Assembly (NCBI RefSeq): GCF_004010195.1
Contig: NC_057717.1
Coordinates: 104,941,904-105,005,903, forward strand
Direction of reading: 5' to 3'
Length of the DNA: 64,000 nucleotides
From: Chiloscyllium plagiosum
Taxonomy: Eukaryota
Both the position numbers and the translations under genes were made by a program. Within the stretch, counting starts at the first letter, position 1. Each line of letters opens with the position of its first letter. Shown one piece after another: positions 14,815 to 62,881 of the stretch. The notes beneath the pieces are model-generated. The model did no database searches. It worked only from the letters and a program-made list of their open reading frames with translations, and was not told the origin of the DNA.

Positions 14815-15277
14815 GGGAGGTGGCGGCAATGCTTTAATGTCACTAGACCTTCATTCCTGAAGAAGGGCTTATGCCACAATGATTCTCCTGCTCCTCGGAT
14901 GCTGCCTGGCCTGCTGTGTTTTTCCAGCACCACACTTTTCAACTCTGGTCTCCAGCATCTGCAGTCCTCACTTTCTCCTTCAATCCAGAACGCCAAGCTA
15001 ATGAATTTGAATCTCATCATGGCAAATGGTTAAATTTGAATTCAATTTTTTAAAAATCTGGAATAAAGAACTGGCCTAATGGTAACCGTGAAACTATTGT
15101 CAATGTCACAAAAAGCCATCTGATTCACTAATGTCATTTAGGGATATGTCCTTACCTGATCTGGCCTTCATTTGACTCGAGACCCCAGCAGTACGGTTAA
15201 TGAACCTCTGAGCAATTAGGGAAAGGCAACAAATGCTGGCATAGCCAGAGATACCCACATCCCACGAATTAATAATA
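14815..15277 (+). mobile_element. Second-family tRNA-derived SINE, interrupted by the short PLE insertion
   Basis: taatgtcactagac...aatccaga head and aaatgctggcatagccagagatacccacatcccacgaat tail. Related copies lie at about 4025-4565, 34880-35265 and 58700-59035 (all minus). Confidence 0.7.
14854..14976 (+). mobile_element. Short PLE pseudo-LTR insertion (family A, hammerhead-headed)
   Basis: Starts ttcCTGAAGAagggcttatgcc and ends ctcactttct. TSD ccttca at 14848-14853 and 14977-14982. Confidence 0.85.
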
Positions 15278-15556
15278 GCTATTTATTTTCCTCTTCATTA
15301 TGTTTCCATCTGGCAATGAGCTTTAACATTCAATTGTTTTGTACATAAACCAGTAGAACTCTCAAAATACTTCCACCAATTCATTGTATTCATTACTCAC
15401 TCTGAGTACTGAAAAGGAACACACTACATAATGGCTTTCTGGTCCACCTAACTATCTGTGCACCACAAAATTACTGGAAATAGCTTGAATTACAATATAA
15501 AGCTGATCTTCCCGCAACAACTAATTTCTAACCTACAGCAATAAAGTCTACTCTTT

Positions 15557-15652
15557 TGGGGTGGCACAGTGGCTACTATTGCTGCCTCACAGCACCATGA
15601 ACCCAGGTTCAATTCCATCCTCAGGCAACTGTCTGTGTGGAGTTTGCACATT
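15557..15652 (+). mobile_element. HE1-type SINE, 5' part; the 3' part is at about 16655-16880
   Basis: Ends at gtttgcacatt. The continuation ttctctccatgcctgcgt follows the CR1 tail. Confidence 0.8.
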
Positions 15653-16654
15653 GGCAAATTAGCAGGCAGTAGGGTGCCACTGGGATCGGTGCTGGGACCC
15701 CAGCTAGTCATAATATATCTCATGGTTTGATGATGGAACAAAATGTAACATCTTAAAGTGTGCAGATGACACCAAGTTGGGTGGGAGGGTGAACTGTGAT
15801 GAGGATACAGAGATCCTCCGACATGATCTGGACAGGTTGGGTGAGTGCGCAAATCATTGGTAGATGCAGTATAATTTGGATAAATCTGAGGTTATTCACT
15901 TTGGAAGCAAAGACAAGAAGACAGATTACTACCTGAATGGCTGTAAATTGGGAGAGGGAGTGTGCAGTGGGACCTGGGTGTCCTTGTGCACCAGTCACTG
16001 AAGGTATTTATTCAGGTGCAGCAAGCAGTAAAGAAGACAAATGGTATGTTGGCCTTCACTGTGAGAGGTTTTGAGTACAGGAACAGGGCTGTGTTGTCAC
16101 AGTTATGCAGGACCTTGGTGAGGCCACACCTAGAATATTGTGTGCAGTTTGGTCTCCTTTGCTGAGAAAGGATGCTCTTGCTCTTGATGGAGTGCAGCAA
16201 CAGTTTACCAGGCTGATTCTGGGAATGGCAGGGCTGACATATGAGGAGAAATTGGCTAGGTTAGCATTGTTTTCGCTGGAGTTCAGATGAATGTGGGGGA
16301 CTCTCATAGAGACTTATAAAATTCTAACAGGACTAGATGGGGTAGATGCAGGGAGGATGTTCTCAATGGTGGATGTGTCCAGAACCTGGGCTCACAGTCT
16401 GAGGATTCGGGGTAGACCATTTAAGATGGAGATGAGACATTTCTCCACCCAGAGTGATGAGCCTGTGGAATTCGTTTCCACAGGAAGTAGGTGATGCCAA
16501 AACACTGAATGTACTCAAAAGGCACTTGGGGTGAATAGGGTCAAAGTTAGAGGGAGAAAGCAGGATTAGGCTATTGAGTTGGATGATCATGATGAATGGC
16601 AGAGCAGGCTCAAAGGACCGAATGGCCACCTCTTGCTCCTATCTCCTATGTATC
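15653..16654 (+). mobile_element. CR1 LINE 3' portion inserted in a SINE
   Basis: GVPLGSVLGP, ADDTKLG and RPHLEYCVQF motifs plus 3' UTR. Confidence 0.9.
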
Positions 16655-16880
16655 TCTTCTCTCCATGCCTGCGTAGGTTTCTTCCTACAGTCCAGTGTGG
16701 GGTGGGTGGACTGGCTATACTAAATTGCCCAAAGTGTTCAGGTATGTGCAGGCTAGGTGGATTAGCCATGGGAAATGCAGGGCTAAGGCAGCAGGGTGGT
16801 CTGAGAGAGATGCTCTTCACAGAGTCGGTGTGGACCCAATAGCAGAATGGCCTGCTTCCACACTAAAGGTTTTATGATTT
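16655..16880 (+). mobile_element. HE1-type SINE, 3' part
   Basis: taaattgccc...gaatggcctgcttccacact tail. Confidence 0.75.
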
Positions 16881-18046
16881 TGCTTGTTGATATAAAACAG
16901 CACTTAAGAGACCTGTCCAGTTATTAAAGAGGGGCAGGAATAATCCCTAGGTTTGAGGGGCAAAAGATTAATTCTTCCAGTATAGTAAACACACTTGTGA
17001 TTGCATATACCTCACTTCAGCACTGAGCTCAAACTACTAAAGTTATTGGAAGTTGACTAAATTAGTATTAACAAATTCATTTATTATTTTCTCCCATCTT
17101 TTTCTGACCTTCACTTTTAGATGTGCTGATATTTTGCTGAATACAAGCTGTTGGACACCTACAGCACTCTAGCACCTAACTCAGACATCAAATGTCATGC
17201 TTGAGGTCTGACAATGAATATAGGTAAAATACTTCAATTTGGGTCATTGCCAAATCTAATCCAAATGTTGTCCACACATATGCATGCATCAACAAGCATC
17301 AGTATTAAATAACAAACTCCAGTTCCACTGGGAGGTTCAAACTTATAATGAACACATTGCAGGGATTGGAGACTAGAATTTGGATGGAATCTATATTGAA
17401 TATCAGAAACCTGAGAGTAAATGTTGACTGGAATCTGAGTAAAAGGTTTCAGATGATATACATATGGAATAAAGAATATCTAGGAGCAATTTATGGGCGA
17501 GAATCTAAATGTGCCTTCTCAGTTATTTATAAACTATTGAATCACTTAGAAGGTGCTACACATAGAATCTAATCAACAAATTCAATAACTGTCAACTGAA
17601 CAAAAGGTCCAATGTAAATAGGGAAAAGCAGTGATGTAATGGCAAGTTAGAAAACATGTTGAAGGCCAATTTGATACCCTTAAATTAATTAATCTTCAGG
17701 CACAAGATACTGTTCAAATAAAAAAATGTTTTAGACTGAACTGCAGTTCTATAGGTTGTTAAAACAGATTACGAGAGAAGGTGCTGCAATTATGTTTGCT
17801 TAGTTTTCCCAAGCAGGTTGCTGGCCTTACTTGCTTTCTTCGTATTCTACATTATCTGCATGAGTTATAGTGTAAGCTTGGTGTAAGATGTTAGGCATGG
17901 GGGAGAAGAATTATTTAACCATTCACTTAATCCTATCTATTTGTTTTAGATGTATAAAACACAATATATCAGGGTTTCCAAGAAAGAAAAGAATTACAGA
18001 ACTGGATTAGTCCACCTCTAAAATTATTGCATCCCACTTAAAGTTT

Positions 18047-18418
18047 GGCATGTTGGCTCAGTGATTAGCACTGTTACCTCACAGCACCAGGGACCCGGGT
18101 TCAATTCCACCCTTGGGAGACTGTCTGTATGGCGTTTGCATGTTCTCCCCATGTCTGTGTAGGTTTCCACTGGGCGCTCCGTTTTCCTCCCATAGTTCAA
18201 AGATGTGTAAGTTAGGTGAATTCTAGTGCATGTCTCTGTTTGGCTTGTCCTAGGATAGATGTGTTAAGGGATGTGCAGACTAGATGGGTTAGCCATGGGA
18301 TATGCAGGGTTACAGGAATAGGTTAGGAGATAAGTCTGGATGGGATGCTCTACAGAGGGTCAGGGTGGACCAGTTGGGCTAAATGGTCTGTTTCTACACT
18401 GTAGGATTCTATGATTCT
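18047..18418 (+). mobile_element. HE1-type SINE, older subfamily
   Basis: A and B boxes, V-domain and gattctatgattct tail. Confidence 0.85.
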
Positions 18419-18765
18419 TACTAACCATTACACTTAACAACCAAAAGAACTGCAAATGCTGTAAATCAAAAACAAAAACAGAAGTTGCTGGAAAAGCTCA
18501 GCAGGTCTGGCAGCATCTATAAAGAGAAATCAAAATGAACATTTCAGATCCATCCTCGGAACTGATGCCAGCTAGAAAAATGTTGGTTTATATGCAGAAG
18601 ATAGGGTGGGATGAGGGGCAAAGAGTAAACGATAGGCCAAAGAGAGAGAACAATAGTTGGACAGACAAAGAAGTTGCTAACAATTTGGCTGGGACGTAAA
18701 TAGCTGTTAATGGAGACTGTTAGTGGCTAACAATAGATAGCGTGTAATGGCAGACTATATGATAA

Positions 18766-18939
18766 AAAGCACAGCCGGTCAAGCAGCATCTGAGGAGCAG
18801 GAGTGTCAACATTCTGAGCGTGTGCTCCTGATGAAGAGCTCAAAACATTCACTCTTCTGCTCCTCAGATGCAGCATGACCAGTTGTGCTTTTCCAGCACC
18901 ACACTTTCCGTCTCCAGTATCTGCAGACCTCACTTTTTC
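18766..18939 (+). mobile_element. Fold-back short PLE pseudo-LTR insertion (family A)
   Basis: Inverted arms around ctgatga (18828-18834). TSD ctatatgataa (18755-18765) and ctatgtgataa (18940-18950). Confidence 0.8.
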
Positions 18940-19100
18940 CTATGTGATAACAAGACCTGGTGTGTGTGGTAGGGGGCTAGGACATAGGGGAGTTCAGGCC
19001 CTAAAATCATTGAACTCGATATTGAATCTGGAAGGTGCTGGAGTCATCAAGTGAAAACTTAGGTGTTATTCTTCCAGCTTGCACTGAGCTTCGCTGGAAC

Positions 19101-19458
19101 GGCACGGTGGCCCAGTGGGCAGCACGGTGGCCCAGTGGGCGGCACGGTGGCACAGTGGTTAGCACTGTTGCCTCACAGCGCCAGAGACCCGGGTTCAATT
19201 CCCGCCTCAGGCGACTGACTGTGTGGAGTTTGCACGTTCTCCCCGTGTCTGCGTGGGTTTCCTCCGGGTGCTCCGGTTTCCTCCCACAGTCCAAAGATGT
19301 GCAGGGCCAGGTGAATTGGCCATACTAAATTGCCCGTAGTGTTAGGTAAGGGGTAAATGTAGGGGTATGGGTGGGTTTCGCTTCGGCAGGTCGGTGTCGA
19401 CTTGTTGGGCCGAAGGGCCTGTTTCCACACTGTAATGTAATCTAATCTAAAAAAAAAC
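19101..19458 (+). mobile_element. Full-length young HE1-type V-SINE with a triplicated 20-bp head
   Basis: Complete A box, B box, V-domain and TCTAA/poly-A tail; inserted in the PLE. Confidence 0.93.
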
Positions 19459-21090
19459 ACTTCAGCAAACCTGGGACAGAGATGTTGGTCAGGGAACAGG
19501 GTGGTGTGTTAAAACGGCAAGCAACTGGAAGCTCAGGGTCTTTTTGTAGGTAGAACATAATTGTTCAGTGAAGCAGTCACCCAGTCTACGCTTTGTTTCC
19601 CCAATATGGAGAAGAGCACATTGTGAGCAGTGGATGCAGTAGAGTAAATTGTGAAAAGTGCAGGTAAAGTGCTGCTTCACCTGGAAGATAGTTTGGGCCC
19701 TTGGATACTGAGGGAAAGAGGAGGTCAATGGGCAGGTATTCTATCTTTGGTGATTGCAGGGGAAGGTGCCATAGGGCTGTGGGGCAGTGTTGGACATTTT
19801 TGAAGAGTAAACAGGGTGTCCCAAGGGAACAGACCCTGTGGAACACAGACGAGGGAGGGGAGGGGATTATGTTCTGGTGGTGGCATCTCACTAGAGGTGG
19901 TAGAAATGGTGGCTGATGATCTTCTGGATATGGGTGCTGGTGGGATGGTACGTAAGGGCAAGTGGAACCCTATCACTGTTGTGGGAAGGGAGAGAGGAGG
20001 TGAGGACGGAAGTGCGGGAGATGGATCAGACCTGGTTGAGAGCCCTGTCAACAATGTTGCAGGGGAATCATTGGTCGAGGAAGAAGGTGGACATTTCGGA
20101 GGATCCCTTGTCGAAGTTGACCTTCTCAGAACATATGCAATGGAGACAGAGGAACTAGGAGAATCAAATAGACTCTTTACAGGAAACAGGGTGCAAGGAT
20201 ATATTGTCAAGATAGCTGAGGGAGTCAGTGGGTTTAAAATGGATATTAGTGCCCTGCCTATCTCCAGAAATGGAAAGAGAGATGTCGAAGAAGGGAAGAG
20301 TGGAGTCAGAGATAGACCAGATGAAAGCAAGGGTGGGATGGAAACTAGAAGAGAGAACGATGAACCTTTCCAACTCCAGATGAAAAAGGGAAGCAGCATC
20401 GATGTCAGATGAAGAATTGTGTGTGGAGGCCAGACTCGGGCTGGAACAAGGAATGTTCCACATACCCCACAAAGAGACAGGCATAACTGGGGCCAAAGCA
20501 AGTACCTGGCCACCCCTCTGACCTGAAGTCATTTAAGTTGTTTCAGTTCCTCTCCTAAAGTATGGAGTCTTGTGGAGATGCAAGCTATATACACTGGCAA
20601 ACCTCGATGATTCCATAAAGGTAGCCTATGTAAGTCTAGACAGGATTCATGTGGTCAGCTATCTCTTAGGGCTCTTGTGGCTAAACTAGTTCCTGTCCTT
20701 ATTCTAAACTGGCCAATGTTCCAGCAAAGATCACCAAGTACTCTTTGCAGACAAAAGCAGCTGATTTTATTCCCTTCTGTGACAAATGAATACTTTGTAG
20801 CATTAGTATGGATTCTTACCTTGCCTACTGAGATGAATAAACCAAGAAACAAAACATGCATTTCTACTATTTATGGCTCAGTATCACATTAGCTGTTCAT
20901 TTAATTCTCATTAGCACTCTTCAAATCAACATATTAGAAAATGCAAATAACAGAACATGAGAATATGACTGTAATTTAATCCTCGGTTAATCTGATGAAA
21001 ACTTGTCCTTTATTCTTACGACAAATGTCTAGAACAAACTGCAGCATCATCCAAACTTCCACACACAAACTTTCAGATGCAAAAACGTAC

Positions 21091-21593: not shown

Positions 21594-21640
21594 TATTGTA
21601 TTCACTTCTCTTATCATGGATAAGAGAAGTGAATACAATA
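21594..21640. repeat. Perfect 22-bp inverted repeat with a 3-nt loop in intron 4
   Basis: tattgtattcacttctcttatc-atg-gataagagaagtgaatacaata; the arms are exact reverse complements. Confidence 0.95.
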
Positions 21641-27880: not shown

Positions 27881-29636
27881 GCTTACTTTTGAACTATTCA
27901 TTATAAACTAAAGACTAGAAAGCAGAATTATTCACATTTATTAATTGGTTTGTTGTCCTGTGCTGATAAAGGTAGTTACTTCACAGAGTTACGTAAAGCT
28001 CTTACGTTATCAGTTTAAAGTGAAAATTACTTCTCTGTTTCAAGGCATTTGCCCATTAATTAATATTTGAATTTTATTGATTTTGTTTTATTTATTACAA
28101 ATTGAAGTCTTGTTCATTTTTTCTCTTGAATTGTTTGGGAATGACGTATTTATTTTTTAAGTTATTTGTTTTTGAAGTTTCTACAGTTAACCAGGTTGGC
28201 TTCTTTATTGATTGTTACAAGACAGAGGCATGAACACAGAAGTTTGGAAATGGATTTGGAGAAGGGACCAAAATCAGTGACTTCAGTTTTTCTAACACAT
28301 AATCAACATAATAGCATGCGCAACATTTTAGACTTTCACATAATGAAATCAGTTTAAAGAGAAAGCATTGAACATTTTTGTTGTTTGGAAAAAAGCTGCA
28401 TAGCAATTTAATCTCAATGTGTTAAAGGCCAAGCAACATTTGAATATATTTTAAAGTTGTGACAATGCTGTGGCTTTAAGAGGTTACAGAACATAGAACA
28501 TAACAGTGCAGTACAGGCCCTTCGGCCCTTGATGTTGCTCCAACTTGTGAAACCAATTTGAAGCTCATCTAACCTACACTATTCCATTTTCATCTATATG
28601 TCTATCCAAAGAACATTTAAATGCCCTTAAAGTTGGTGAGTCTCTACTGTTGCAGGCAGCAGTTTCCACACCCCTACTACTCTCTGAGTAAAGAAACTAA
28701 CTCTGACATCTGTCCTATATCTATCATCCCTTAATTTAAAGCTATATCCCCTCATGCAAGCCATCACCAACTGAGGAAAAAGGCTCTCACTGTCCACCCT
28801 ATCTAACCCTCTGATTATCTTTTATGTCTCAATTAAGTCACCTCTCAATCTTCTTCTCTCCAATGAAAACAGCCTCAAGTCTCTCAGCCTTTCCTCTAAA
28901 ACCTTCCCTCCATACCAGGCAACATCCTAGTAAATCTCCTCTAATTCCTTTCCAAAGCTTCCACATCCTTCCTATAATGCAGTGACCAGAACTGTACACA
29001 ATATTCTAAATGTGGCCGCACCAGAGTTTTGTACAGCTGCAGCTTGACGTCATGGTTCTGAAACTCAATCCCTTTACCAATAAAAGCTAACACACTGTAT
29101 GCCTTCTTAACAACCTTATCAACCTGGATGGCAAATTTCAAGGATCTATGTACCTGGACACTGAGATATCTCTGCTCATCTACACTACCAAGAATCTTAC
29201 CATTAGCCCAGTACTCTGCATTCCTGTTACTCCTTCCAAAGTAAATTACCTCACACTTTTCCACATTAAACTCCATTTGCGTCCTCTCAGCCCAGCTCTG
29301 CAGCTTATCTGTGTCTCTCTGTAACCTACAACATCCTTCATCACTATCCACAACGCTACCGACCTTAGTGTCATCCGCAAATTTACTAATCTATCCTTCT
29401 ATGCCCTCATCCAGGTAATTTATAAAGTTGACAAACAACAGTGGACCCAAAACAGATCCTTGCGGTACACCACTGGTAACTGTACTCCAGGATGAATATT
29501 TACCATCAACCACCACCCTCTGTCCTCTTTCAGCTAGCCAATTTCTGATCCAAGCCACTAAATCATGCTCAATCCCATGCCTCCATATTTTGCGCAATAG
29601 CCTACCATGGGGAACATTATCAAACACCTTACTGAA

Positions 29637-30760
29637 TTACCTCGACACGGTCCTGTCCCCATTAGTCCAAGAACTCCCCACCTACGTTCGTGACACCACC
29701 CACGCCCTCCACCTCCTCCAGGATTTCCGCTTCCCCGGTCCCCAACGCCTCATCTTCACCATGGACATCCAGTCCCTGTACACCTCCATCCCCCATCACA
29801 AAGGACTCAAAGCACTCCGCTTCTTCCTTTCCCGCCGTACCACCCAGTACCCTTCCACCGACACCCTCCTTCGACTGACCGAACTGGTCCTCACCCTGAA
29901 CAACTTTTCTTTCCAATCCTCCCACTTTCTCCAAACAAAAGGAGTAGCCATGGGCACCCGCATGGGCACCAGCTATGCCTGCCTCTTCGTAGGGTATGTG
30001 GAACAATCCATCTTCCGCAACTACACTGGCCCCACCCCCCATCGTTTCCTCCGCTACATTGATGACTGTATCGGCCCTACCTCGTGCTCCCACGAGGAGG
30101 TTGAACAGCTCATCCACTACACTAACACCTTCCACCCCGACCTCAAATCCACCTGGACAGTCTCGGACTCCTCCCTCCCCTTCCTAGACCTTTCCGTTTC
30201 TATCTCAGGCGACCGAATCAACACGGACATCTACTACAAACCTACCGACTCCCACAGCTACCTGGACTACACCTCCTCCCATCCTGCCCCCTGTAAAAAC
30301 GCCATCCCATTCTCCCAATTCCTCCGTCTCCGCCGCATCTGCTCCCAGGAGGACCAGTTCAAAATACGTACAACACAGATGGCCTCCTTCTTCAAGGACC
30401 GCAATTTCCCCCCCGACATGGTCGACGGTGCCCTCCACCGCATCTCCTCCACTTCCCGCTCCTCCGCCCTTGAGCCCCGCCCCTCCAACCGCCACCAGGA
30501 CAGAACCCCACTGGTCCTCACCTACCACCCCACCAATCTCCATGTACAGCGCATCATCCGCCGTCACTTCCGCCACCTCCAAACAGACCCCAGCACCAAG
30601 GATATATTTCCCTCCCCACCCCTACTCTCTGCTCATTCCTGAGGAAGGGCCTTGCCCGAAACGTCGAATCTCCTGTTCCCTGGATGCTGCCTGACCTGCT
30701 GTGCTGTTCCAGCAATAAAGTTTCAACTTTGATCTCCAGCATCTGCAGACCTCACTTTCT
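29637..30760 (+). mobile_element. Young Penelope-like element (Neptune-like): open RT/thumb ORF joined directly to the pseudo-LTR
   Basis: FTMDIQSLYTSIPH, GVAMGTRMGTSYACLF, FLRYIDDC and YYKPTDSHSYL with no stops. 10-bp TSD ccttactgaa at 29627-29636 and 30761-30770. Confidence 0.95.
30635..30669 (+). ncRNA. Minimal type I hammerhead ribozyme (PLE type, family A) with an intact core
   Basis: attc-CTGAGGA-a-GGGC-ctt-GCCC-GAAAC-GTC-gaat. Stem I attc/gaat, stem II GGGC/GCCC, palindromic ACGT in place of a looped stem III, GUC cleavage triplet. Confidence 0.8.
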
Positions 30761-31499
30761 CCTTACTGAAATCCACACACACCACATCAACCACTTTACC
30801 CTCAGCCACCTATTTGGTCACCTTTTCAAAGAACTCAATAAGGTTTGTGAGGCATGATCTACCCTTCACAAAACCATGTTGTCTATCCCTAATCAAATTA
30901 TTCCTCTCCAGATGATTTTAAATCCTATCTCTTATAGCCCTTTCCAACACTTTACCCACAACCAAAGTAACGCTCACTGGTCTATAATTTCCAGGGTTAT
31001 CTCTACTCGCCTTCTTGAAAAAGGGAACAACATTTGCTATCCTCCAGTCTTCTGGCACTATTTCTGCAGACAATGATGACATAAAGATCAAAGCCAAAGG
31101 CTGGGCAATCTAGCTTCCCAGAGAATCCTAGGATAAATCCCACCTGGCCCTGGGGACTTATCTATTTTTATACTTGCCAGAATTGCTAACACCTCCGCCT
31201 TGTGAACCTCAATCCCATCAGGTCTATTAGCCTGTATCTCAGTATTCTCCTAGACCACATTGTCTTTATCTAATGTGAATACGAATGAAAAGTATTCATT
31301 TAGCGCTTCCCCATCTCCTCTGCCTCCACACACAACTTCTCACTATGATCCTTGATTGACCCTAATCTTACTCTAGTCATTCTTTTATTCCTGATATACC
31401 TACAGAAAGCCTTAGGGTTTTCCTTGATCCTATCTGCCAATGACTTCTTATGTCAAATGGGCTTGTTTCCACACTGTAGGGATTCTCTTCTAAAAACGT

Positions 31500-32797: not shown

Positions 32798-33292
32798 CCC
32801 CTGCAAGACCATCTTATCCTGTTTGGGCCTCCTCCACCGCCACTCCCTCACCACCCAACACTTGGAGGAAGAACACCTCATCTTCCACCTCGGAACACTT
32901 CGACCCCAGGGCATCAATGTGGACTTCACCAGTTTTCTCATTTCCTCTCACCCCACCTTACCCCAGTTCCAACCTTCCAGCTCAGCACCATCCTCATGAC
33001 CTGTCCTACCTCTCAATCTTCCTTCCCACTTATCCACTCCACCTCCTCTCTGACCTATCACCTTCATTCCCACCTCCATCCACCTATTGTCCTCTTGGCT
33101 ACCTTCTCCACAGCCCCACACCCCTCCCATTTATCTCTCCACCCTGGAGGCTCCGTCTTCATTCCTGATGAAGGGCTTTTTCCCGAAATGTCGATTTTCC
33201 TGCTCCTCAGATGCTGCCTGACCTGCTATGCTTTTCCAGCACTATTCTAATCTAGACTCTAATCTCCAGCATCTGCAGTCCTCACTTTTGCC
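32798..33292 (+). mobile_element. PLE 3' fragment (endonuclease C-terminus and pseudo-LTR, family A)
   Basis: LGLLHRHSLTT.HLEEEHLIFHLGTLRPQGINVDF, pyrimidine-rich UTR, hammerhead core and ctcacttttgcc end. Confidence 0.88.
33161..33196 (+). ncRNA. Near-intact minimal hammerhead motif, family A
   Basis: attc-CTGATGA-a-gggcttttt-ccc-GAAAT-GTC-gatt. One core C>T change and stem mismatches relative to the 30635 copy. Confidence 0.65.
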
Positions 33293-34879: not shown

Positions 34880-35265
34880 TTTCTATATCATTCCAGAGGG
34901 TAGTTAAGAGTCAACCATTCTGCTGTGAATTAAAGTCACATGTAGGGCAGATTACTTAAAGATGGCAGATTTTCCTTCTCTCAAGGACAGTTGTGAACCA
35001 GTTGGGTTTTAACATCAATTGATAATGTGCTGTCAAAGTAGCACCCTCGGTCCTGGAGGAACGCTGTCTCATTTTTACTCTATCAGCTGTGTATGGTAGA
35101 AATGACAAATAAAAGCTACTCTACTCTAATGGTTTCATGGTTGCCATTCAACAACTTTTAATTCCTGATTTATCAACTGAACGTCATGATTCAAACCATG
35201 TCCCCAGAGTACTGACCTGTGTCTCTGGATTACTAGTCCAGTGATAATGCCACAATAACACTAAT
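34880..35265 (-). mobile_element. Second-family tRNA SINE, with a nested LINE 3'-tail fragment at about 35028-35128
   Basis: ggattactagtccagtgataatgccac head (reverse). The insert ends aaataaaagctactctactct. Confidence 0.65.
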
Positions 35266-35318
35266 TCCCTATGTTGGAGGGTTACAAAGGTGAAAGTAGG
35301 TAGTCCTAGCCATGGAGA

Positions 35319-35443
35319 AACTGAGGACTGCAGATGCTGGAGATCAGAGTCAAAAGTGTGGTGCTGGAAAAACACAACAGGTCAGGCAGCATCCGAGGAG
35401 CAGAAGAATTGATGTTTCAGGCATAAGCCCTTCATCAAGAATC
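35319..35443 (-). mobile_element. Short PLE pseudo-LTR insertion (family A, hammerhead-headed)
   Basis: Minus strand starts gattcTTGATGAagggcttatgcctGAAACATCaatt. TSD of about 17 bp: agtcctagccatggaga (35302-35318) and agtctcagccatggaga (35444-35460). Confidence 0.85.
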
Positions 35444-35589
35444 AGTCTCAGCCATGGAGAGGATATGTGGTTTGAAATTTAACTCAAGCTCAAATGGAAT
35501 GCCAAATAGTCAAGTATTCTGGTTCGGCATCAGAAATGGTTAACGTTTCTGTTCTGGTTGCACCAGCATCACAGATCAGCACCTGTACT

Positions 35590-39660: not shown

Positions 39661-41009
39661 GAATACTGTTAGTGCTTCCACACAAGCTATCCATCTGCGA
39701 GCTGCCAGAAAGCCAACTTACTTCTAGATTTAAGAGAGATTCAGGATCAAGGCAAAAGACACATCAAGGGAAATCAGGACTAGAGGGTAATGGAATCAAA
39801 AATTAGCAAATAATATGTGGGTAATTTTTCACAAACCATTCCAATGTTTTGCAATTAGTGATTCTGTACCTCAGGGCATTAAGTACACAGGTGTGGAAGG
39901 CAAATTCATCCCCTAAAGTCCCAAAATTGCAGTGGAAACATCAATAATGGATGAACGCTCAGAAAAGCTGTTCCCTTGTGAAATAATGCCACAGAGGCCT
40001 ATATCTCATCACCAATTCACCCTTCATTTACATGTGGAGTATCCTTGACACTGATTCAGCTCGATCAGAGCCAGAATGCCTGCTTACGTCTGTCAGCCAG
40101 GGCTCCCCATTTGGAGTGGATTAACAGCCCCGATCAGGGAACTCATATTCTATGGGGTCAACCTGGCTGACCTCATTACAATCACTACATCTCTCACTCT
40201 CTTAGTCCAAGGACATAGGCCAGCTCTTTTTTTTGTAGCTCCGCATGGGGCATTTTAGCACCAGGTCAGGTTCCTGATACGGTAGAATGTAACGCACAGT
40301 AGCTCATTTCTTGCGCCCAGAAGGTTCCGGGCAAAATGCATTGTCCTCTTCAGGTGGCAACATCCACCATGTATATCTCAGATTCCAAGATACTTTCAAT
40401 GCTTGATGGAGAGGGAGAACCCACAGGTTCTGGAACAGTCCGAAAGGAGTTGAGGAGCCGGGTATGTTTTCTTCCATATCATTTGTGATTTTGCAGCTTT
40501 CATATGGTCCACATGCTTGTTCAAGACCATTGGACCTATCTGAACTTTATACATCACTGGAGACCTTACCTCGCGACGAACATCCCTCTTACCCAAACAG
40601 GGCCATTCCAGCAATTCCTACACCACACATCATCCCCTGAAGTAAATTGTCACTCTCGCTTAGCAGAATCTTTTCTTCGGCATTGGCATTCTTGATGCCA
40701 TTTCACACTCTTCCCCAAGGTCTGGAAAGATTTGATTTAACCTGGTGCAGAATCTTCTCCCCATTAGCAACTCTATTGGAGTTATTCCTGTAGTTGCTTG
40801 AGGGATCATTCTATAATCAAACAGGAACCAGGACAGTTTGTTTTCTAGTGAAGCTGTAGACTGTTTCTTTAAGCCTGCCTTCAAAGTTTGGACTGCTTTT
40901 TCTGCCAGACCATTGGGTGATGGATGGTACGGAGCTGTCCTTATATGACAAACACTTTATATAACTTTGGGAAATATGCAAATTCCCTGCTGGTAAACAA
41001 TGGCCTGTA

Positions 41010-42840
41010 TGAAAAGGGGTAATCTGCCATGGGTATCTAAGGAAATAAGGGAGGCTATCAAATTGAAAGAGAAGGCGTATAAAGTGGCCAAAAACAGCAT
41101 GAAACAAGAAGACTGGGAAAACCTTAGTGATCAACAGAAAGCCACAAAAAGAGCTTTGAAGGAAAGTAAGAAGGTACATGAGAAAAAACTAGCACAGAAT
41201 ATAAAGACAGATAGCAAACGTTTCTATAAATATATAAAACAAAAAAGAGTGGCTAAAGTAAACATTGGTTCCTTAGAGGATGAGAAGGGGCATTTACCTT
41301 ATGATGAAATGGCCGAGGCATTGAACAGGTATTTTGTATCGGTCTTCACAGTGGAGGACACGAATAACATGCCAGTAATTGACAAAGAGACGAAGGCAGG
41401 TGAGGACCTGGAAACAATCATAATTATGGAAGAGGTAGTGTTGGGCAAGCTAATGGAGCTATGGATAGACAAATCTTCTGGCCCTAACGGAATGCATCCT
41501 CGGGCACTAAAAGAGATGGCAGGAGAAATAGCAAGTGCACTGGTGGTAATTTTCCAAAATTTGCTGGACTCTGGGGCAGTTCCAGCAGATTGGAAAACAG
41601 CAAGTGTGACCTCACTATTTAAAAAGGGAGGTGGGCAAAAGATGGGGAATTATAGACCGGTTAGCTTAACGTCTGCAGTGGGGAAGATGCTTGAGTCTAT
41701 TATCAAGGAAGAAATAGCAAGGAATCTTGATAGAAACTATCCTGTTGGGCAGACGCAGCATGGGTTCACGAAGGGCAGGTCGTGCTTAACAAATCTTTTG
41801 AAAGTCTATGAAGACATTATGAGCAAGGTGAACAACGGGGACCCAGTGGATGTGGTGTACCTAGATTTCCAAAAGGCCTTCGCATAAGAGGCTGCTGCAT
41901 AAGATAAGGATGCAAGGCATGACAGGTAAAGAATTAGTATGGATAGAGGATTGGTTGACTAACAGGAAGCAAAGAGTGAGGATAAATGAGCGCTATTCTG
42001 GCTGGCAATCAGTAACTAGCGATGTGCCTCAGGGATTGGTGTTGGGACCACAATTATTCACAATTTATAAAGATGATTTGGAATTGGGGACCACGTGTAG
42101 TATGTCAATGTTTACAGATGACACTATGATGAGTCGCAGAACAAAGTGTGCGGAGGACTCTGAAACTTTGTAAAGGAACATGGAAAATATGACTGAGTGG
42201 GCAAAGATCTGGCAGATGGAGTACAATGTTAATAAATGTGAAGTCATCCATTTTGGTTGGAGTAACATTAAAAAGCATTATTACTTGAATGGTAAAAGGT
42301 TGCAGCATGCTGCTATGCAGAGGGACCTGGGTGTCCTTGTGCATGAATTACAGAAGGTTGGTCTGCAATCAGGTTATGTTGCAGCTGTACAAGGGCTGGT
42401 GAGGCCACACCTGGAGTACTGTGTGCAGCTTTGGTCTCCTTACTTGAGAAAGAATGTACTGGTACTGGAAGGGGTGCAGAGGAGGTTCACTAGGTTAATT
42501 CCAGAGTTGAGGAGGTTGGCTTATGAGGAGAGACTGATTGATTGGGATTATATTCATTGGAATTTAGAAGAATGAGGGGGGATCTTATAAAAACATATAA
42601 AATTATGAAGGGAATAGACAAGAAAGAAGTAGAGAAGATATTTTCACTGGAAGGTGGAATTAGGGCAAGAGGGCATAGCTTCAAGATTAGAGGGAGCAGA
42701 TTTAGGACTAACTTGAGAAGGAACTTCTTCACCCAGGGGGTTGTAAATCTATGGAATTCCTTGCTCAGTGAAGTGGTTGAGGCATCCTCAGTAAATATTT
42801 TTAAAGCTAAGACAGATTTCTTTTGAACAATAAAGGAATT
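41010..42840 (+). mobile_element. CR1 LINE ORF2 inserted in the Gypsy integrase region; 3' tail missing
   Basis: ORF 41000-41887 (NYRPVSLTS, QHGFTKGRSCLTNL, YLDFQKAF) and downstream frames. Confidence 0.92.
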
Positions 42841-53914: not shown

Positions 53915-55409
53915 ATAGACAATAGACAATAGGTGCAGGAGTAGGCCATTCAGCCCTTCGAGCCTGTACCGCCATTCATTATGATCATGGCTGATCATTC
54001 CTAATCATTATCCTCTTCCTGCCTTATCTCCATAACCCTTGATTCCACTATCTTTGAGAGCTCTATCCAACTCTTTCTTAAATGAATCCAGAGACTGGGC
54101 CTCCACTGCCCTCTGGGGCAGAGCATTCCACACAGCCACACTCTCTGGGTGAAGAAGTTTCTCCCCATCTCTGTCCTAAATGGTCTACCCCGTATTTTTA
54201 AGCTGTGTCCTCTAGTTCGGCACTCACCCATCAGNNNNNNNNNNNNNNNNNNNNNNNNNNNNNNNNNNNNNNNNNNNNNNNNNNNNNNNNNNNNNNNNNN
54301 NNNNNNNNNNNNNNNNNNNNNNNNNNNNNNNNNNNNNNNNNNNNNNNNNNNNNNNNNNNNNNNNNNNNNNNNNNNNNNNNNNNNNNNNNNNNNNNNNNNN
54401 NNNNNNNNNNNNNNNNNNNNNNNNNNNNNNNNNNNNNNNNNNNNNNNNNNNNNNNNNNNNNNNNNNNNNNNNNNNNNNNNNNNNNNNNNNNNNNNNNNNN
54501 NNNNNNNNNNNNNNNNNNNNNNNNNNNNNNNNNNNNNNNNNNNNNNNNNNNNNNNNNNNNNNNNNNNNNNNNNNNNNNNNNNNNNNNNNNNNNNNNNNNN
54601 NNNNNNNNNNNNNNNNNNNNNNNNNNNNNNNNNNNNNNNNNNNNNNNNNNNNNNNNNNNNNNNNNNNNNNNNNNNNNNNNNNNNNNNNNNNNNNNNNNNN
54701 NNNNNNNNNNNNNNNNNNNNNNNNNNNNNNNNNNNNNNNNNNNNNNNNNNNNNNNNNNNNNNNNNNNNNNNNNNNNNNNNNNNNNNNNNNNNNNNNNNNN
54801 NNNNNNNNNNNNNNNNNNNNNNNNNNNNNNNNNNNNNNNNNNNNNNNNNNNNNNNNNNNNNNNNNNNNATGTGGGACTTTATCAAAGGCTTTCTGAAAGT
54901 CCAGGTATACTACATCCACTGGATCTTCCTTGTCCGTCTTCAAAGTTACATCCTCAAAAGATTCCAGAAGATTAGTCAAGCATGATTTCCTTTTCATAAA
55001 TCCATGCTGACTCTGTCCTATCCTGTTACTACTATCCAGATGTGCCGTAATTTCATCCTTTATAATAGACTCCAGCATCTTTCCCACCACTGAGGTCAGA
55101 CTAACTGGTCTATAATTTCCTGCTTTCTCTCTCCCACCTTTCTTAAAAAGTGATATAACATTAGCCACCCTCCAATCCTCAGGAACCGACCCTGAATCTA
55201 TCGAACTCTGGAAAATAATCACCAACGCATCCACGATTTCCCGAGCCACCTCCTTCAGTACCCTGGGATGTAAACCATCAGTCCCCGGAGACTGATCAAC
55301 CTTCAGACCTAACAGTCTTCCAACACCAAATCCTGGCAAATATAAATTCCCTTAAGTTCAGGTCCTTCAGCCACTGTTACCTCAGGGAGATTGCTTGTGT
55401 TTTCCCCAG
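53915..55409 (-). mobile_element. Young 5'-truncated CR1 LINE, same subfamily as 9492-11278, with an assembly gap
   Basis: HPRVLKEVAREIVDAL...YLDFQKAFDKVPH; (CTATTGT)n tail; TSD ttagaa at 53909-53914 and 55410-55415. Confidence 0.93.
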
Positions 55410-58699: not shown

Positions 58700-59035
58700 T
58701 TCTTTTTATTCAGTCACAAGAATGTGGGCTTCACTGGCTAGACCAGTATTCATTACCCATGCCTAACTGAGAATCAACAATATTGCTGTGGTTCCAGAGT
58801 CACATGTAGACCAGACCAGGTAAAGACAGCAGTTGCCTTCCCTAAAGAACATTTGTGAACCAGATAGATTTTTTCCTGACATCTGACAATAGCATTAGAC
58901 TCTTACTTCAGACGTTTTTCTGTAGATTGTAAATTCTATTATTTGCCATGGTAGGATTCAAACCTGGGGTCCAGAATATTATCTGGATCTCTAGATTAAT
59001 ATTCTAGTGGTAATACCATTAGGCTATCACCTCCC
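58700..59035 (-). mobile_element. Second-family tRNA SINE
   Basis: Homologous to 14815-15277 in reverse. Confidence 0.7.
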
Positions 59036-61009
59036 CAACAAGTACACCATTTACCTTCCTGTTCCAGAGTCCCAGGATCACAGAATATCCAAAGGCCTCT
59101 CCAGTTGCGGTTACAAGGAGAGTAGGGTGGTGACATGGCTCCCAGTTGGCATGATGTCCAGTCCTTTGATTAGGCTGCCCACAGAGAAGCAGCTGTTGTA
59201 CATGGTAACAAGGGAAAAGGTCAACCATAGGCCTTCCTTCCCAGGATTTAATTCTGACAGAGGTGGGAAGGTGGTGGAATTTAGTAAAGAAAACCCGTTC
59301 ACCTCCAAATAAATTCCTTTCCCACCTCTTAGCTTGCTGCAGAAAGCTTGCTCTTAATTTGATCAAATGGCCTTTGAACTGCCAAAGTATAATGGCTCCA
59401 GCAAGGAAAATACAGGCCTCATTATCAGTAACGTGCAACGCTGAAATAATCAAATCCACATAAGCACATTAGAGAAATAGGACAGATAGTTAAAGACAGG
59501 TAAATATGGCAACCTTGCATCCAAAGTGAAACTAAATGTAACCAATGGCACAGAGCCTTGCTGGTGTTGGCAATTTTTATAAACATGCCATTTAATTTGT
59601 TTTCTTTTTCTATAGCCTGGCACACAAACACTCATCCTTATTAATTATTTATGGAAATCTGCTTATCTGAGTTTATGCCAATTGTGAGAGAAAATCACAA
59701 CCAACTGAAAGCCCTGGTTTCTGACATAAATATAACATAGTTTCTTTGAATTTTGTTTTATTTTTCAACCTGACATTCAGTTTGGATTCCACAAGGGCCA
59801 TTCAGTACCATTAAAGTCTTGATTAAAACATGGGCAAAAGAGATGAATTTCAGAGGTGATGTGTAAATGACTTTCTGATTAATGCCTCATTTTGACTGTG
59901 GCATCAAGGAATCCTAGCAAAAAGACATCAATGGAAATTGAGTGAAAACTCTCTGCTGGTTGGAGTCATACCTAATATAAAGAAATGTGTTATGGTTGTT
60001 GGAAGTCAATCATCTCAGCTTACGTGTATCACTCTGCAGCACTAACTTGTCAGAGGCATTGCACAATACTTTGGGACCATACTTTCTAGCATGAATGTGG
60101 TGGCCAACACCATGCAGAGACTTGTGAAACAATCCATGATGCAGCAGTGTATGGCTAGTAATGCAGTTTCCATTTTATCCCAAATAAACAGCCACCTAGC
60201 ACCTGGGTGTTGCAGTCCAGTCCAGCTTTCTAGCCATCCTGACTGTAGATTGAAGTATTTAAAAAGACTTGATAGATCTCCCAGTAGTCCGGCAATCTGT
60301 CCTTCATAAGGATTGCTGAAATTAAAACATAGTGGATGTTATCATCTAGTATGGTCTGGCTAGGAAGTCTGACACCTTACGAAACTAGAAAAGCCTGATA
60401 TATTATTAAGGGTTAATTGGATGAGAACTGGGAGCATAAACATGGAGAGCAATTAATTAATTTAAGGTGCATAAACTAGAAATAAAACTCTGACTAGAAA
60501 CGTATACAACTGGACTCTGTCTAACAAGCAATTTAATCTCTGGTATTTAATAATGGTGTCATCATGACTCCAAAATGCATGCAACAACTGTTTTGTATCT
60601 GTAACATAACATTTATCCTCGTACACTTGCCAAAGTATATGCAATCACTGTCCTCTATCCTCCTACCCCTGCGATTACACCAGTGGCCCTGTTCTGGTCT
60701 AATCCTGACCAGGACCAGCCTAGACTGCCACCATTCATGCAAACATGGTGCAGTACAAAGCCCAGAGCTGCTTATGGCTGTCCTTAAAGGATATTTGTAA
60801 GCAAAATGACCAGATTTTATGTATAGGTTTATAATGGGGTGGCTATTTTGATGGGACTTTTATTTTTGCATTGTTACTAAGAGGACATTTTGATGTTTAA
60901 TGACAAGGAAAGGTATGGTACAGGTTATGGTGAAAGATCATCAATTCATTGTATTAGTTCTACTTTGCATCTGATGTTTGAGCAGTTCTTGTTTTTATTT
61001 CATGAGTCA

Positions 61010-62881
61010 CCAGGCATGAGGCCTTCAGATCAGGAGACCCACTCAAATATAAGGAATCCAAGTATGACCTTCACAGAGCCATTAAGACAGCCAAGGACCA
61101 ATACCGCTCCAAACTAGAGACCCAGACAGACACCCGGAGATGATGGCAAGGACTGAATGACATCACAGGTTTTAAAAAGAGACAGTGCAAGACAGCAGAT
61201 GATGACTATCCCTCTCAGATCATCTCAACGCCTTCTATGCTCACTTTAAGCAGAATTTTGGCGGAGAGTTAACACCTATTCTGACAAGTTCTGATGAACC
61301 TATCACAACAGTCACTGCATCAGGGGTCAGATCAGTTCTCCTTCATGTGAATCCAAGGAAAGCGATGGGACCAGACGGAGTACCAGGCCGTGCACTCAGA
61401 GCACGCACAGATCAACTGGCAGAGATTTTCTCAGACATCTTCAACTCTCCCTGCAGCAGGCCACTGTCCCTGCCTGTTTCAAAAGGACCAACATCATCCC
61501 TGTGCCTAAGAAGGCTCATGCAGCATGTGTCAATGACTACCGCCCAGTGGCCCTAACTTTAGTAGTCATGAAGTGCTTTGAAAGGCTGGTCATGGCATTA
61601 ATCAACTCCAGCCTCCCTACTACTCTTGACCCACTCCAATTTGCCTATTGGACCAAAAGATCCAAGTCAGATGCCATATCACTTGCCCTTCACTCCTCCC
61701 TAGAACATCTTGACACCAAGAACAGCTACGTAAGAATCCTCTATTCCTGATAAAGGGCTTTTGCCTGAAACATCGATTTTCCTGCCTGACATGCTGTGCT
61801 TTTCCAGCACCACTCTGATCTAAACAAATGTAAGAATCCTAGTCATTGACTACAGTTCAGCCTTCAACACTATTATCCCTTCAAGACTGATTACTAAACT
61901 TAGTGATCTCGGACTAAGCCCCACTCTCTGCAACTGGATCCTCAGCTCCTGACCCACAGGCCACAATTAGTGATGACTGGGGACAATATTTCATCCTCAC
62001 TAACACTCAATACTGCAGCACCCCCAGGGGTGCGTACTCAGCCCCCTACTGTACTCACTGTATACCCACCATACCACCATAGTCAGTTGAATCTCAGACG
62101 GCGACAAAACAGACTACAGACGGGAGGTGGAAGACCTGGAAAAATGGTGCACTGAGAACAACCTAGCTCTCAATGTCAGCAAAACCAAGGAACTCATTAT
62201 TGACTTTTGGCGGGATGTTACTCATGCTCCCCTCCACATTAACAGCACAGAAGTGGAACGAGTGGAGAGTGTCAAGCTCCTGGGTGTGGTCATCCACAAT
62301 AAGCTTTCTTGGACTCTTCATGTGGACGCACTGGTTACAAAAGCCTAACAACGTCTCTTCTTCCTCAGGCAGCTGAGGAAATTTGGCATGATGCGAATAC
62401 CTTTACCAACTTTTATAGGTGTGCCATCGAGGATATTCTACCTGGTATGGCAACTGTACCATTCAAGATCGGAGACGGTTACAGAGAGTGGTGAACTCAG
62501 CCCGGACAATCACAAAAGCCAACCTCCCATCGATAGAATCCATCTACCAGGTCCGCGGTCAAGGAAAGGCCGCCAGCATTCTCAAAGATCCATCCCACCC
62601 TGGCAATGGTTTTCTACAACCTCTACTATCGGGGAGAAGGTACAGAAGCCTGAACACACGCACCAACCGGTTTCAAAACAGTTTCTACCCTATTGTTGTT
62701 AGAATGCTGGATCAAGTCACAAACTCTTACCATTTGCCTGTACCTGTGTTTTTGTATTTGCTACTGTTTATCTATTATTTACTTATCTATACTACATAAC
62801 TCTGTGATCTGCCTGTATTGCTCACAAGACAAAGCTTTTCACTGTGCCTCGGTACACGTGACAATAAATTCAATTCAATTC
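61010..62881 (+). mobile_element. Rex1/Babar-like non-LTR retrotransposon, 5'-truncated
   Basis: [43 protein letters not shown] and RFQNSFYP; aataaa(ttcaa)n tail. The FADD region appears deleted. Confidence 0.88.
61741..61829 (+). mobile_element. Short PLE pseudo-LTR insertion (family A, hammerhead-headed) in the Rex1-like LINE
   Basis: ctattcCTGATAAagggcttttgcctGAAACATCgatt...; exact 11-bp TSD gtaagaatcct at 61730-61740 and 61830-61840. Confidence 0.88.

Follow-up and report, generated by a model that had tools for sequence, protein, structure and literature searches.

Most copies of this Penelope-like element (PLE) in the genome of Chiloscyllium plagiosum are pieces of 95–130 bases from its 3' end, and their 5' ends concentrate at the 5' edge of the hammerhead motif that they carry. 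The best explanation is that these units are 3' ends, or by-products, of an endonuclease-positive PLE and not a separate element. The kind of element is known, and the quantitative detail of its 5' boundary is new. In what follows, +1 is the A of ATTCC, which lies 4 nt 5' of the CUGA box, and the hammerhead cleavage site falls at +32/+33.

PLE copies in the window

The window, i.e. the whole stretch of DNA analysed, comprises 64,000 nucleotides (contig NC_057717.1, positions 104,941,904–105,005,903). The initial annotation had reported three short insertions in it, all of which we found. Mini-copy 1 (about 14846–14978, plus strand) has its A(+1) at 14853, retains the tail, ends in the conserved ...CTCC and has a mutated GAAA box. 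The 6-bp TSD 'ccttca' proposed for it, with the insertion placed at 14854–14976, is doubtful, its 'cc' being part of the CTCC end. Because the 'gaccttc' that precedes ATTCC in this copy is also present at two unrelated loci (L088 and L118), a start at about −8 ('agaccttc') is more likely. Mini-copy 2 (35314–35443, minus strand; G(−1) at 35443, A(+1) at 35442) also contains the tail and is mutated at C3 (TTGATGA). It does have a TSD, of 12 bp rather than the proposed 17 or so (atggctgagact at 35455–35444 and atggctaggact at 35313–35302, 10 of 12 positions identical); the 5 extra nucleotides ('tctcc') belong to the element itself, as its 3' end. The G at −1 falls outside this TSD. Mini-copy 3 (61741–61829, plus strand; A(+1) at 61743) starts 2 nt before +1 and is mutated at G8 (CTGATAA). 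The 11-bp TSD described for it matched exactly on both flanks (61730–61740 and 61830–61840). This copy is tail-less, with a 3' end at the first RT-start region, and has an internal deletion.

The window also contains longer and rearranged copies. A composite copy (29637–30762, plus strand; TSD cttactgaa) consists of an RT-coding fragment equivalent to positions 3584–4570 of the full-length copy described below, a 6-nt filler, and a unit that runs from −11 (30624) to the tail, with A(+1) at 30635. The corresponding ORF (29419–30642) scored 27.3 bits with RVT_1, under the cut-off of 29.6. An ordinary 5'-truncated copy (32823–33292, plus strand) reads through the hammerhead and keeps 338 nt upstream of its A(+1) at 33161, including TTTATCT at 33130–33136. 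A fold-back copy occupies 18765–18941, with an inverted arm (18765–18813) and a direct arm with tail (18826–18941), and an additional inverted copy lies nearby, at about 18446–18546.

The CUGAnGA/GAAA core was mutated in all three mini-copies, and among six window copies tested only the one at 30635 contained a complete minimal hammerhead. In the 36 sampled copies that reach +1, both boxes, helix II and the UH cleavage site were kept in 16, all of which have an extra nucleotide (9/10.1), while the palindrome 15.2/16.2 and at least three of the four helix I pairs were additionally kept in 7. The Rfam hammerhead covariance models gave no match in the window at the gathering score, and none at E values up to 10 in 35200–35560 or in the intact copies of locus L165, which may be due to a motif without helix III. 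As a predicted motif, the unit has the features given for the minimal hammerheads of metazoan PLEs in the available sections of Cervera and De la Peña (2014, PMC4209133): CUGAnGA and GAAA boxes, the G10.1–C11.1 pair, palindromic 15.2/16.2 without helix III, a 4-bp helix I, and occurrence mostly as single motifs and as pairs on opposite strands. The single motifs are described there as 'probably related to truncated PLEs', with no mention of the motif as the start of such truncated copies. Most of the present copies are decayed.

Map of 5' ends and the parent element

An exact 23-mer of the tail occurred 57,302 times in the genome (0 for the reversed control) and a second tail variant 26,059 times. 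To map the ends, we took the first 100 tail-bearing places of one contig (C1) in genome order, a sample unbiased for 5' extent in which at most 98 copies are independent (L066 and L067 are duplicates, and L077/L078 is a single fold-back counted twice). They yielded 139 mapped cDNA ends, 86 of which lie at −4 to +13 of the hammerhead 5' edge, 15 further upstream, 21 at +14 to +40, 11 at +41 to +90, and 6 beyond +90. Similarly, 27 of the 45 simple copies without N on the 5' side start in the hot spot, 9 reach upstream and 9 are shorter. The boundary noticed from the window is thus real and strongly non-random. Since TSD-resolved starts range from −10 to +8, it is a hot spot of about 20 nt and not a single nucleotide. 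Only 10 of the 139 ends fall around the ribozyme cleavage site (+27 to +37), and we agree with the initial annotation that self-cleavage does not set the end.

A full-length PLE copy was found at locus L043, flanked by a 12-bp TSD. Its 893-aa ORF matched RVT_1 (33 bits, cut-off 29.6). A candidate GIY-YIG domain, C-terminal to the RT at residues 777–807, scored 21.2 bits (E = 3.5e-4), under the cut-off of 22.6; with it, the arrangement would be that of canonical endonuclease-positive PLEs as presented in the available sections of Craig et al. (2021, PMC8557442, after Evgen'ev and Arkhipova 2005 and Arkhipova 2006). From the stop codon to the hammerhead, in the 3' UTR, there are about 150 nt, while the start of the ORF lies inside 120-bp monomers that immediately follow the TSD, and there is no 5' pLTR.

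In the units, the minimal hammerhead is followed by one of two 3' ends, at about +93 to +100 or about +130. Fold-backs accounted for 47 of the 100 sampled copies. The outer end of the inverted arm lay at +87 to +107 in 34 of these 47, the direct arms ending at +130; at least one arm ended in the hot spot in 42 of them and both arms in 17. Tandems were seen at L128 and at L164 and L165, the last two being 224-bp arrays of this unit. The tail followed by TCRAAGATT gave 1,681 matches, and about half of the first 100 have one downstream sequence in common, which suggests that the PLE RNA continues 3' of the tail, as internal initiation requires. The sections of PMC8557442 just cited also list, for canonical PLEs, heavy 5' truncation, partial tandems, variable TSDs, a 30–40-bp tail at one end only, and, next to the 5' end, a 5'-truncated copy in inverted orientation. 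They describe 5' truncation as general and mention no hot spot like the present one, in which about 60% of the ends fall within about 20 nt of the hammerhead 5' edge. Because the units have the 3' end and tail of the PLE, as well as its TSDs and fold-back structures, they were made by its RT/GIY-YIG machinery. The first reading of the window had missed that about every second copy is a fold-back, and that PLE hallmarks already in print include the 35-nt 'tail' and the inverted arms.

Origin of the boundary

The reading that we favor, tentatively and at slightly less than an even chance, is that mini-copies are run-off cDNAs of PLE RNAs that physically end, on the 5' side, at the hammerhead edge; this end may be a pLTR transcription start. 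The PLE RT would start internally on its RNA, about 95 and about 130 nt downstream of the hammerhead 5' edge, and copy toward the RNA 5' end. These two sites are deduced from the two 3' ends; in the PLE of Anolis (2024, PMC11167929) two RT start sites, with a 30–40-bp tail, have been demonstrated. If the 5' ends of most template RNAs lie no more than about 10 nt from where helix I begins, the cDNA would run off after 95–130 nt and join the target as a TSD-flanked mini-copy. If priming occurs on both cleaved target strands, as it does in vitro with the Anolis enzyme, two run-off cDNAs would be joined head to head into a fold-back, and the hammerhead edge would form both of its inner ends. The RNA 5' end would most likely be a transcription start driven by the element's own 3' UTR/pLTR; the hammerhead would then head the transcript, travel uncleaved and play no part in setting the end.

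A promoter at this place is suggested by motif resemblance only. TTTATCT is found at about −32 to −26, together with the initiator-like CTCATTCC, CTCA(+1)TTCC. In an alignment of 27 long copies from several subfamilies, many rows of which are near-identical and come from one young family, TTTATCT and CTC|ATTCC were at least 80% conserved at a fixed spacing, while neighboring columns vary. Against such a promoter, the 224-bp arrays are without TTTATCT. A precedent is Penelope of Drosophila virilis, which according to the available sections of Schostak et al. (2008, PMC2377424) is transcribed from inside the pLTR by a TATA-less Inr+DPE promoter. Its hammerhead lies in the 5' leader and nearly heads the transcript, the intron ending at helix I (PMC4209133, same sections as above). 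The start in D. virilis is separated from the hammerhead by 46 nt plus a 75-nt intron, whereas the one proposed here is at the hammerhead edge.

Full-length L1 copies bear an extra 5' G, an untemplated G being added at a capped end. A hand tally of the base at −1 in 100 copies gave C 45, G 41, A 7 and T 7. The junctions fetched were mainly those with G (18 G, 2 A), which biases comparison across bases. A clear TSD was seen by eye in 10 of the 18 G junctions; the single G lay outside the TSD in four (L145, L147, L151, L155), as in window mini-copy 2 and L022, and inside it in six. Much of the G excess is therefore derived from the target. The first 4–7 nt are duplicated, as if by stuttering, at L154, L158 and L071, and template-switch-like junctions were noted at −11 (the composite window copy), −14 (the 224-bp arrays) and +1 (L128). 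The extra G and the stutters fit run-off better than RT termination. The junctions at −11 and −14 are too near TTTATCT for a TATA-type start. Against run-off, a poly(A) single-cell RNA run showed no pile-up of read starts; depth on the unit was 5–10 times that upstream, on both strands, as expected from copy number alone. The spread of the ends over about 20 nt (−10 to +13), instead of at one nucleotide, also speaks against it.

The initial annotation had offered the folded ribozyme as the place where reverse transcription stops. In a broader form, the RT would terminate, or release its template, at the hammerhead 5' edge on longer RNAs, the ribozyme being folded or protein-bound (an RNP roadblock or measured copying). 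In several subfamilies the boundary falls on the base that opens helix I, the ends are ragged and the multimer array at L165 also starts at about +5 to +8; moreover, the Anolis hammerhead is protein-assisted (PMC11167929), which implies that the protein contacts this region. Yet the RT arrives from the 3' side and has already copied the whole module when synthesis ends, and no stable structure is predicted upstream (z −1.1). In vitro, when templates are truncated at the 5' side but still begin upstream of the hammerhead, the Anolis RT copies them completely and its products shorten accordingly (PMC11167929, Fig. 1D), which implies that it reads through the hammerhead. The 15 ends that lie well upstream show no second barrier. 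We therefore consider a stop at the folded ribozyme unlikely, and rate the broader version as improbable, at perhaps one chance in five. Still less probable is a choice of junction by microhomology, in which the endonuclease would leave a top-strand end in AT(T) that anneals to the cDNA opposite the ATT at +1 to +3, and longer cDNAs would be trimmed to this point. AT does follow the TSD in the target at 8–9 of the 14 junctions with a resolved TSD, 5'-ATT-3' is the site preferred by the Anolis endonuclease (PMC11167929), and the stretch upstream of +1 is C-rich with almost no ATT. However, most of the AT excess comes from selection, since an exact ATTCC match was required; the ATT at +34 to +36 would be crossed first, yet none of the 45 simple copies starts at +30 to +40; and clear TSDs without microhomology are present at L117, L150 and L163. 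Recombination between the 5' and 3' pLTRs of full-length elements would retain the TSDs, and the unit would equal the pLTR if this were present at both ends of full-length copies. We regard such solo pLTRs as extremely improbable: the full-length copy examined is without a 5' pLTR, short copies greatly outnumber long ones, and tail-less versus tailed ends, fold-backs, extra G and stutters would be left unexplained.

A more specific form of run-off on RNAs starting at the boundary, which we consider possible but rather unlikely, places the minimal hammerhead at a capped RNA 5' end, overlapping the core promoter (initiator at +1, ACGT at +28 to +31). Retroviral minus-strand strong-stop DNA is a short cDNA of this type, made from an initiation site near the RNA 5' end. 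With RT starts only 95–130 nt downstream, most priming events would yield similar run-off cDNAs, which here, unlike strong-stop DNA, would be integrated directly by target priming. The bulk of the at least 80,000 tail-bearing PLE copies would then be abortive leader copies, and the long-unexplained position of the hammerhead in PLEs would mark the transcript 5' end and not a processing site. More generally, if the RNA starts at the boundary, a single 130-nt leader would hold the promoter, the ribozyme and the site of RT entry, and the sterility of single-unit copies would be accounted for; failing that, the length of the product would be measured by the RNP. No class of retrotransposons is less well understood than the PLEs, and what their hammerhead does is treated as an open question in the available parts of the PLE literature. 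The hammerhead-edge boundary is a detail inside a known system, and a sharp 5' boundary at the ribozyme's first base in tens of thousands of insertions offers a concrete handle on it.

Lineage of the short copies and related elements

The other proposal of the initial annotation was a discrete SINE- or retrozyme-like mini-element that the PLE protein mobilises in trans. To propagate itself, such an element would need transcription of its short copies, and an Inr/DPE-like promoter inside the unit, where it would overlap the ribozyme, is one conceivable source. In a tree built from 73 direct arms (117 columns, hence of low resolution), no clade of short copies was present and short and long copies were interleaved, one of the observations that the annotation had named as counting against its proposal. 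Label changes numbered 30, compared with 32.5 ± 2.3 in shuffles, and long versus short required 13 changes, a value equalled in 117 of 300 shuffles. Thus a self-propagating SINE-like family is unsupported, and such mixing is expected if short and long copies come from the same RNAs. The unit is nonetheless discrete and its numbers are huge; +1 is initiator-like and ACGT at +28 to +31 sits where LINE-type DPEs do, with the Penelope DPE (PMC2377424, sections cited above) as a possible precedent. PLE-derived retrozymes have also been proposed in vertebrates (Li, Clavereau and Pollet 2026, bioRxiv 10.64898/2026.07.22.740005, in the parts available). Four copies (L001, L002, L005 and L006) have G(−1) and T at core position C3 in common, but this is a selection effect, because the query used to rank the loci had both features itself. 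Moreover, subfamily-diagnostic changes occur in long and short copies alike, no A or B boxes are evident by eye, and most cores are decayed, with 16 of 36 intact. Mini-copies are also without sequence 3' of the tail, and the Anolis RT needs the first 172 nt of the ORF (PMC11167929); by analogy, mini-copy RNAs would need a downstream leader for RT binding. Altogether we give the mini-element a low probability, about that of microhomology.

The Anolis PLE (PMC11167929) resembles the present one in its spacing: the two adjacent RT start sites, which delimit its tail, lie about 100–140 nt downstream of the hammerhead. Cleavage and extension occur on both strands of the target, and the template is uncleaved RNA. 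The two differ in that the ORF of Anolis PAc starts inside the hammerhead; in the present element the ORF begins within the 120-bp monomers and the hammerhead follows it, in the 3' UTR. The available portion of the main text on Anolis does not analyse the 5' ends of genomic copies.

Genome annotation is likely to list the units under 'retrozyme monomers' or to give them a short repeat family of their own, whereas we take them to be by-products of the autonomous element. Animal non-LTR retrozymes, as described in the accessible parts of Cervera and de la Peña (2020, PMC7229834) and of the bioRxiv report, likewise bear hammerheads, are non-autonomous and are tied to PLEs. They consist of tandem 170–400-bp repeats with a type I hammerhead, whereas mini-copies are dispersed single units or fold-backs, which span the cleavage site rather than ending there and have no lineage of their own. 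The tandem arrangement of retrozymes is found here in the 224-bp array (L164, L165) and not in the mini-copies.

Hammerhead copies of the window and their parent element

The three short insertions flagged in the initial annotation (copies 1, 2, and 3) are present in the window sequence, and BLAST with each of them retrieved seven related places within it. Positions are numbered from the A of ATTCC (+1), which lies four bases 5' of the CUGA box of the hammerhead. Copy 2 (35443-35314, minus strand) starts with a G followed by A(+1) and is flanked by a 12-bp target-site duplication (TSD), identical at 10 of 12 bases; the other five of the ~17 bp initially assigned to this duplication come from the element itself, which ends in ...TCTCC. 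Copy 3 (61741-61829, plus strand) starts 2 nt 5' of +1, has the reported 11-bp TSD, which is exact, and lacks the last ~35 nt. The 6-bp TSD proposed for copy 1 is doubtful: two of the six bases are part of the conserved 3' end, and the 'gaccttc' preceding ATTCC is also found at the unrelated loci L088 and L118. A start at about -8 is more likely for this copy. The window also contains a fold-back copy (18765-18941), an ordinary 5'-truncated copy extending 338 nt beyond the hammerhead (32823-33292), and a composite element (29637-30762) made of an RT-coding fragment, a 6-nt filler, and the hammerhead unit from -11. The internal junction of the latter, which had been noted just upstream of the core, is therefore at -11. 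The hammerhead core is mutated in all three short copies and, among six window copies tested, is complete only at 30635.

The composite element and a copy at another site (L032, 1497-3022) share the same 5' start, at 3584/3585 of the full-length copy, and have different internal deletions (4571-5262 and 4928-5206, respectively). The shared start points either to a second 5'-end hot spot or to a deletion-prone non-autonomous lineage. Other window ORFs (9488-10627, 40997-41887, and 61298-61750 on the plus strand, 54224-55351 on the minus strand) match RVT_1 weakly to moderately and probably belong to other retroelement families; the one at 61298-61750 abuts copy 3. Runs of N adjoin several copies in the window (677 N in all) and at L043, L055, and L164, and may be assembly gaps at fold-back repeats.

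The unit, i.e. the 95-130-bp piece from hammerhead to tail, constitutes the 3' end of a Penelope-like element (PLE) of the endonuclease-positive type, since a full-length copy at locus L043, whose ORF matches RVT_1 and comes close to the GIY-YIG cut-off, ends in it. This copy is flanked by a 12-bp TSD and comprises, in order, ~4.3 tandem 120-bp monomers, an 893-aa ORF, ~150 nt of 3' UTR, and the hammerhead unit. The ORF scored 33 bits for RVT_1, above the cut-off, and its residues 777-807 scored 21.2 bits for GIY-YIG, just under the cut-off of 22.6. A protein search of the 3.56-Gb genome with the RT fragment yielded 100,110 first-look candidates. The monomers, in which the full-length copy begins (2486-3003, reverse strand), are in frame with the ORF; each has an ATG and encodes 40 aa also present in the ORF N-terminal region. 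They could represent a monomer-type 5' promoter region.

The motif of the unit has the features of the minimal PLE hammerhead set out in PMC4209133: CUGAnGA and GAAA boxes, one additional base between positions 9 and 10.1, base pairing in helix II, a palindromic 15.2/16.2 without helix III, and a helix I of 4 bp, which here starts at +1. The boxes and helix II are kept in 16 of the 36 copies reaching +1, and every feature in 7 of them. Neither the window nor intact copies matched the Rfam hammerhead models. We did not count this against the assignment, because the published features are present and the motif has no helix III, to which the failure may be due. An ORF starting at an ATG in loop II was dropped from consideration, this ATG being missing in two subfamilies.

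Position of the 5' ends

The exact tail 23-mer occurs 57,302 times in the genome (0 for the reversed control) and a second tail variant 26,059 times. We mapped the first 100 places with the 23-mer, all on one contig (C1), onto long reference copies. Since matches were listed in genome order, this sample is unbiased for 5' extent; at most 98 of the places are independent, as L066 and L067 duplicate each other and L077/L078 represent one fold-back found from both arms. The best 30 matches to copy 2 were left out of all proportions, because a 125-nt query starting at the boundary favors full units and a G at -1.

Simple copies, with one arm, accounted for 53 of the 100 places, and in the other 47 an inverted arm adjoined the 5' side (fold-backs). 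Eight simple copies with N on their 5' side were excluded; of the 45 others, 27 started between -4 and +13, 9 reached upstream (-30 to beyond -320), and 9 were shorter. At least one arm ended at -4 to +13 in 42 of the 47 fold-backs, and both did in 17. Overall, 86 of 139 mapped ends, whose BLAST-derived positions are approximate, fell within the 18-nt interval -4 to +13, while 15 lay upstream, 21 at +14 to +40, 11 at +41 to +90, and 6 beyond +90. An even spread was clearly not seen, and the 5' ends are indeed placed non-randomly at the hammerhead, as had been claimed. The hot spot is ~20 nt wide and has no single position, since the starts resolved by a TSD scatter from -10 to +8 (-10, -7, -3, +1, +3, +7, +7, and +8). 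Only 10 of the 139 ends were at +27 to +37, around the cleavage site (+32/+33), and hammerhead cleavage was rejected as their origin, in agreement with the initial annotation.

Minimal hammerheads, tails, and inverted arms have all been published for PLEs, the class to which these elements belong. PMC4209133 describes most PLE hammerhead motifs as single and 'probably related to truncated PLEs'. In the papers on PLEs and hammerheads consulted here, we found no description of truncated copies ending at the first base of the hammerhead or of their proportion; the supplementary genomic-coverage figures of PMC11167929 may bear on this. The boundary at the hammerhead edge is thus a useful quantitative observation on a known kind of element.

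Origin of the boundary

Two explanations had been put forward for the boundary: a discrete ribozyme-headed mini-element moved in trans, or a folded ribozyme stopping reverse transcription. Concerning the first, we placed 73 direct arms on a tree (29 from simple short, 29 from fold-back, and 15 from long copies; 117 columns; arms not reaching +14 or containing N omitted). Short copies were interleaved with long ones, an outcome that the initial annotation had named among those refuting a discrete mini-element (30 label changes, as compared to 32.5 ± 2.3 with shuffled labels); long versus short gave 13 changes, which 117 of 300 shuffles equalled, and subfamily-diagnostic changes were common to both. 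As far as 117 columns tell, the short copies form no family of their own, and a self-propagating mini-element appears quite improbable. A structural block is also unlikely, because the RT has already passed the whole ribozyme when it reaches the end point, because the C-rich upstream region has no predicted stable fold (that of -100 to +132 is not unusual, z -1.1), and because with the Anolis RT in vitro, 5' truncation of templates beginning upstream of the hammerhead shortens the products (PMC11167929). We consider a stop imposed by an RNP unlikely, less so than the mini-element. Microhomology with a target cut ending in AT(T) contributes to end placement: in 8-9 of 14 junctions, from a sample that required an exact ATTCC, the next target bases are AT. 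Against it, simple copies have no hot spot at the ATT at +34, although this is crossed first. Solo-pLTR recombination was rejected, the one full-length copy examined (L043) having no 5' pLTR.

We tentatively favor the possibility that most template RNAs start at the hammerhead edge. The RT would enter these RNAs 95-130 nt downstream and run off their 5' end, yielding a mini-copy, which would probably be sterile because the leader is missing. An extra G, stutters, and switch-like junctions point to such a physical template end. Of the 10 G(-1) junctions with a TSD clear by eye (18 fetched), 4 have a single G outside the TSD, as do copy 2 and L022. By hand tally, the base at -1 was C in 45, G in 41, A in 7, and T in 7 of 100 places. 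A cap-derived G is only suggestive, because G(-1) is inside the TSD, hence target-derived, in 6 of the 10 resolved cases, and because mainly G cases were fetched. At L154, L158, L071, and L009, the 5' junction repeats the first 4-10 nt of the unit (e.g. a second partial ATTCCTG), which looks like slippage at a template end. Template-switch-like junctions occur at -11 (window composite), -14 (224-bp arrays), and +1 (L128).

A start at the hammerhead edge would also fit the motifs around it. In 27 long copies of several subfamilies, many of them from one young family, TTTATCT (at about -32 to -26) and CTC|ATTCC keep a fixed spacing in variable surroundings, and look like a TATA-like element and an initiator; from these motifs only, we infer a promoter. 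According to two papers, transcription of D. virilis Penelope starts inside the pLTR from an Inr+DPE promoter (PMC2377424) and its leader contains the hammerhead (PMC4209133). Sequence shared by genomic copies suggests that the RNA extends past the tail into a conserved leader, which is what internal initiation requires. In one poly(A) single-cell RNA run, depth on the unit was 5-10-fold that upstream, on both strands, which copy number alone would explain; this run, uninformative for short or non-polyadenylated RNAs, showed no pile-up of read starts or ends. The ragged ends weaken the idea of an RNA start, and the -11 and -14 junctions are too near TTTATCT for a TATA-type start.

Fold-backs, 3' ends, and tandem arrays

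The PLE hallmarks listed by Craig et al. 2021 (PMC8557442) include strong 5' truncation, a tail of 30-40 bp at one end, partial tandems, and, at the 5' end, an inverted copy that is itself 5'-truncated. With an Anolis PLE, the template is uncleaved RNA, both target strands are cut and extended, and the tail is explained by two adjacent sites of internal RT initiation (Frangieh et al. 2024, PMC11167929). The two 3' ends of the shark copies (near +93 to +100 or near +130) fit this closely. The outer end of inverted arms was at +87 to +107 in 34 of 47 fold-backs; direct arms ended at +130, as imposed by the tail search pattern. A fold-back would consist of two cDNAs, one primed on each target strand, joined at their 3' ends, so that its inner ends would mark where cDNA synthesis ended. 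Like the ends of simple copies, these inner ends are concentrated at the hammerhead edge.

The ends at +27 to +37 (L044-L143) form a minor cluster near the palindromic ACGT and the cleavage site, and are found in fold-backs only. A hand tally of the first 100 matches to the second tail variant on C1 gave T after the ...CTCC end in 82 and TC in 53; this is partly template RNA past the tail, due to a ragged RT start, and may partly be target preference.

Retrozymes, the proposed non-autonomous relatives of PLEs, are tandem repeats, unlike the mini-copies of this genome. Tandem arrays with a 224-bp period are present at L164 (265-700, reverse strand) and L165 (240-815), the latter beginning at about +5 to +8 of a hammerhead. 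Their retrozyme-like, PLE-derived repeat contains the 130-nt hammerhead unit, an 80-nt 'leader' that master copies carry 3' of the tail, and the final 14 nt of the 3' UTR.
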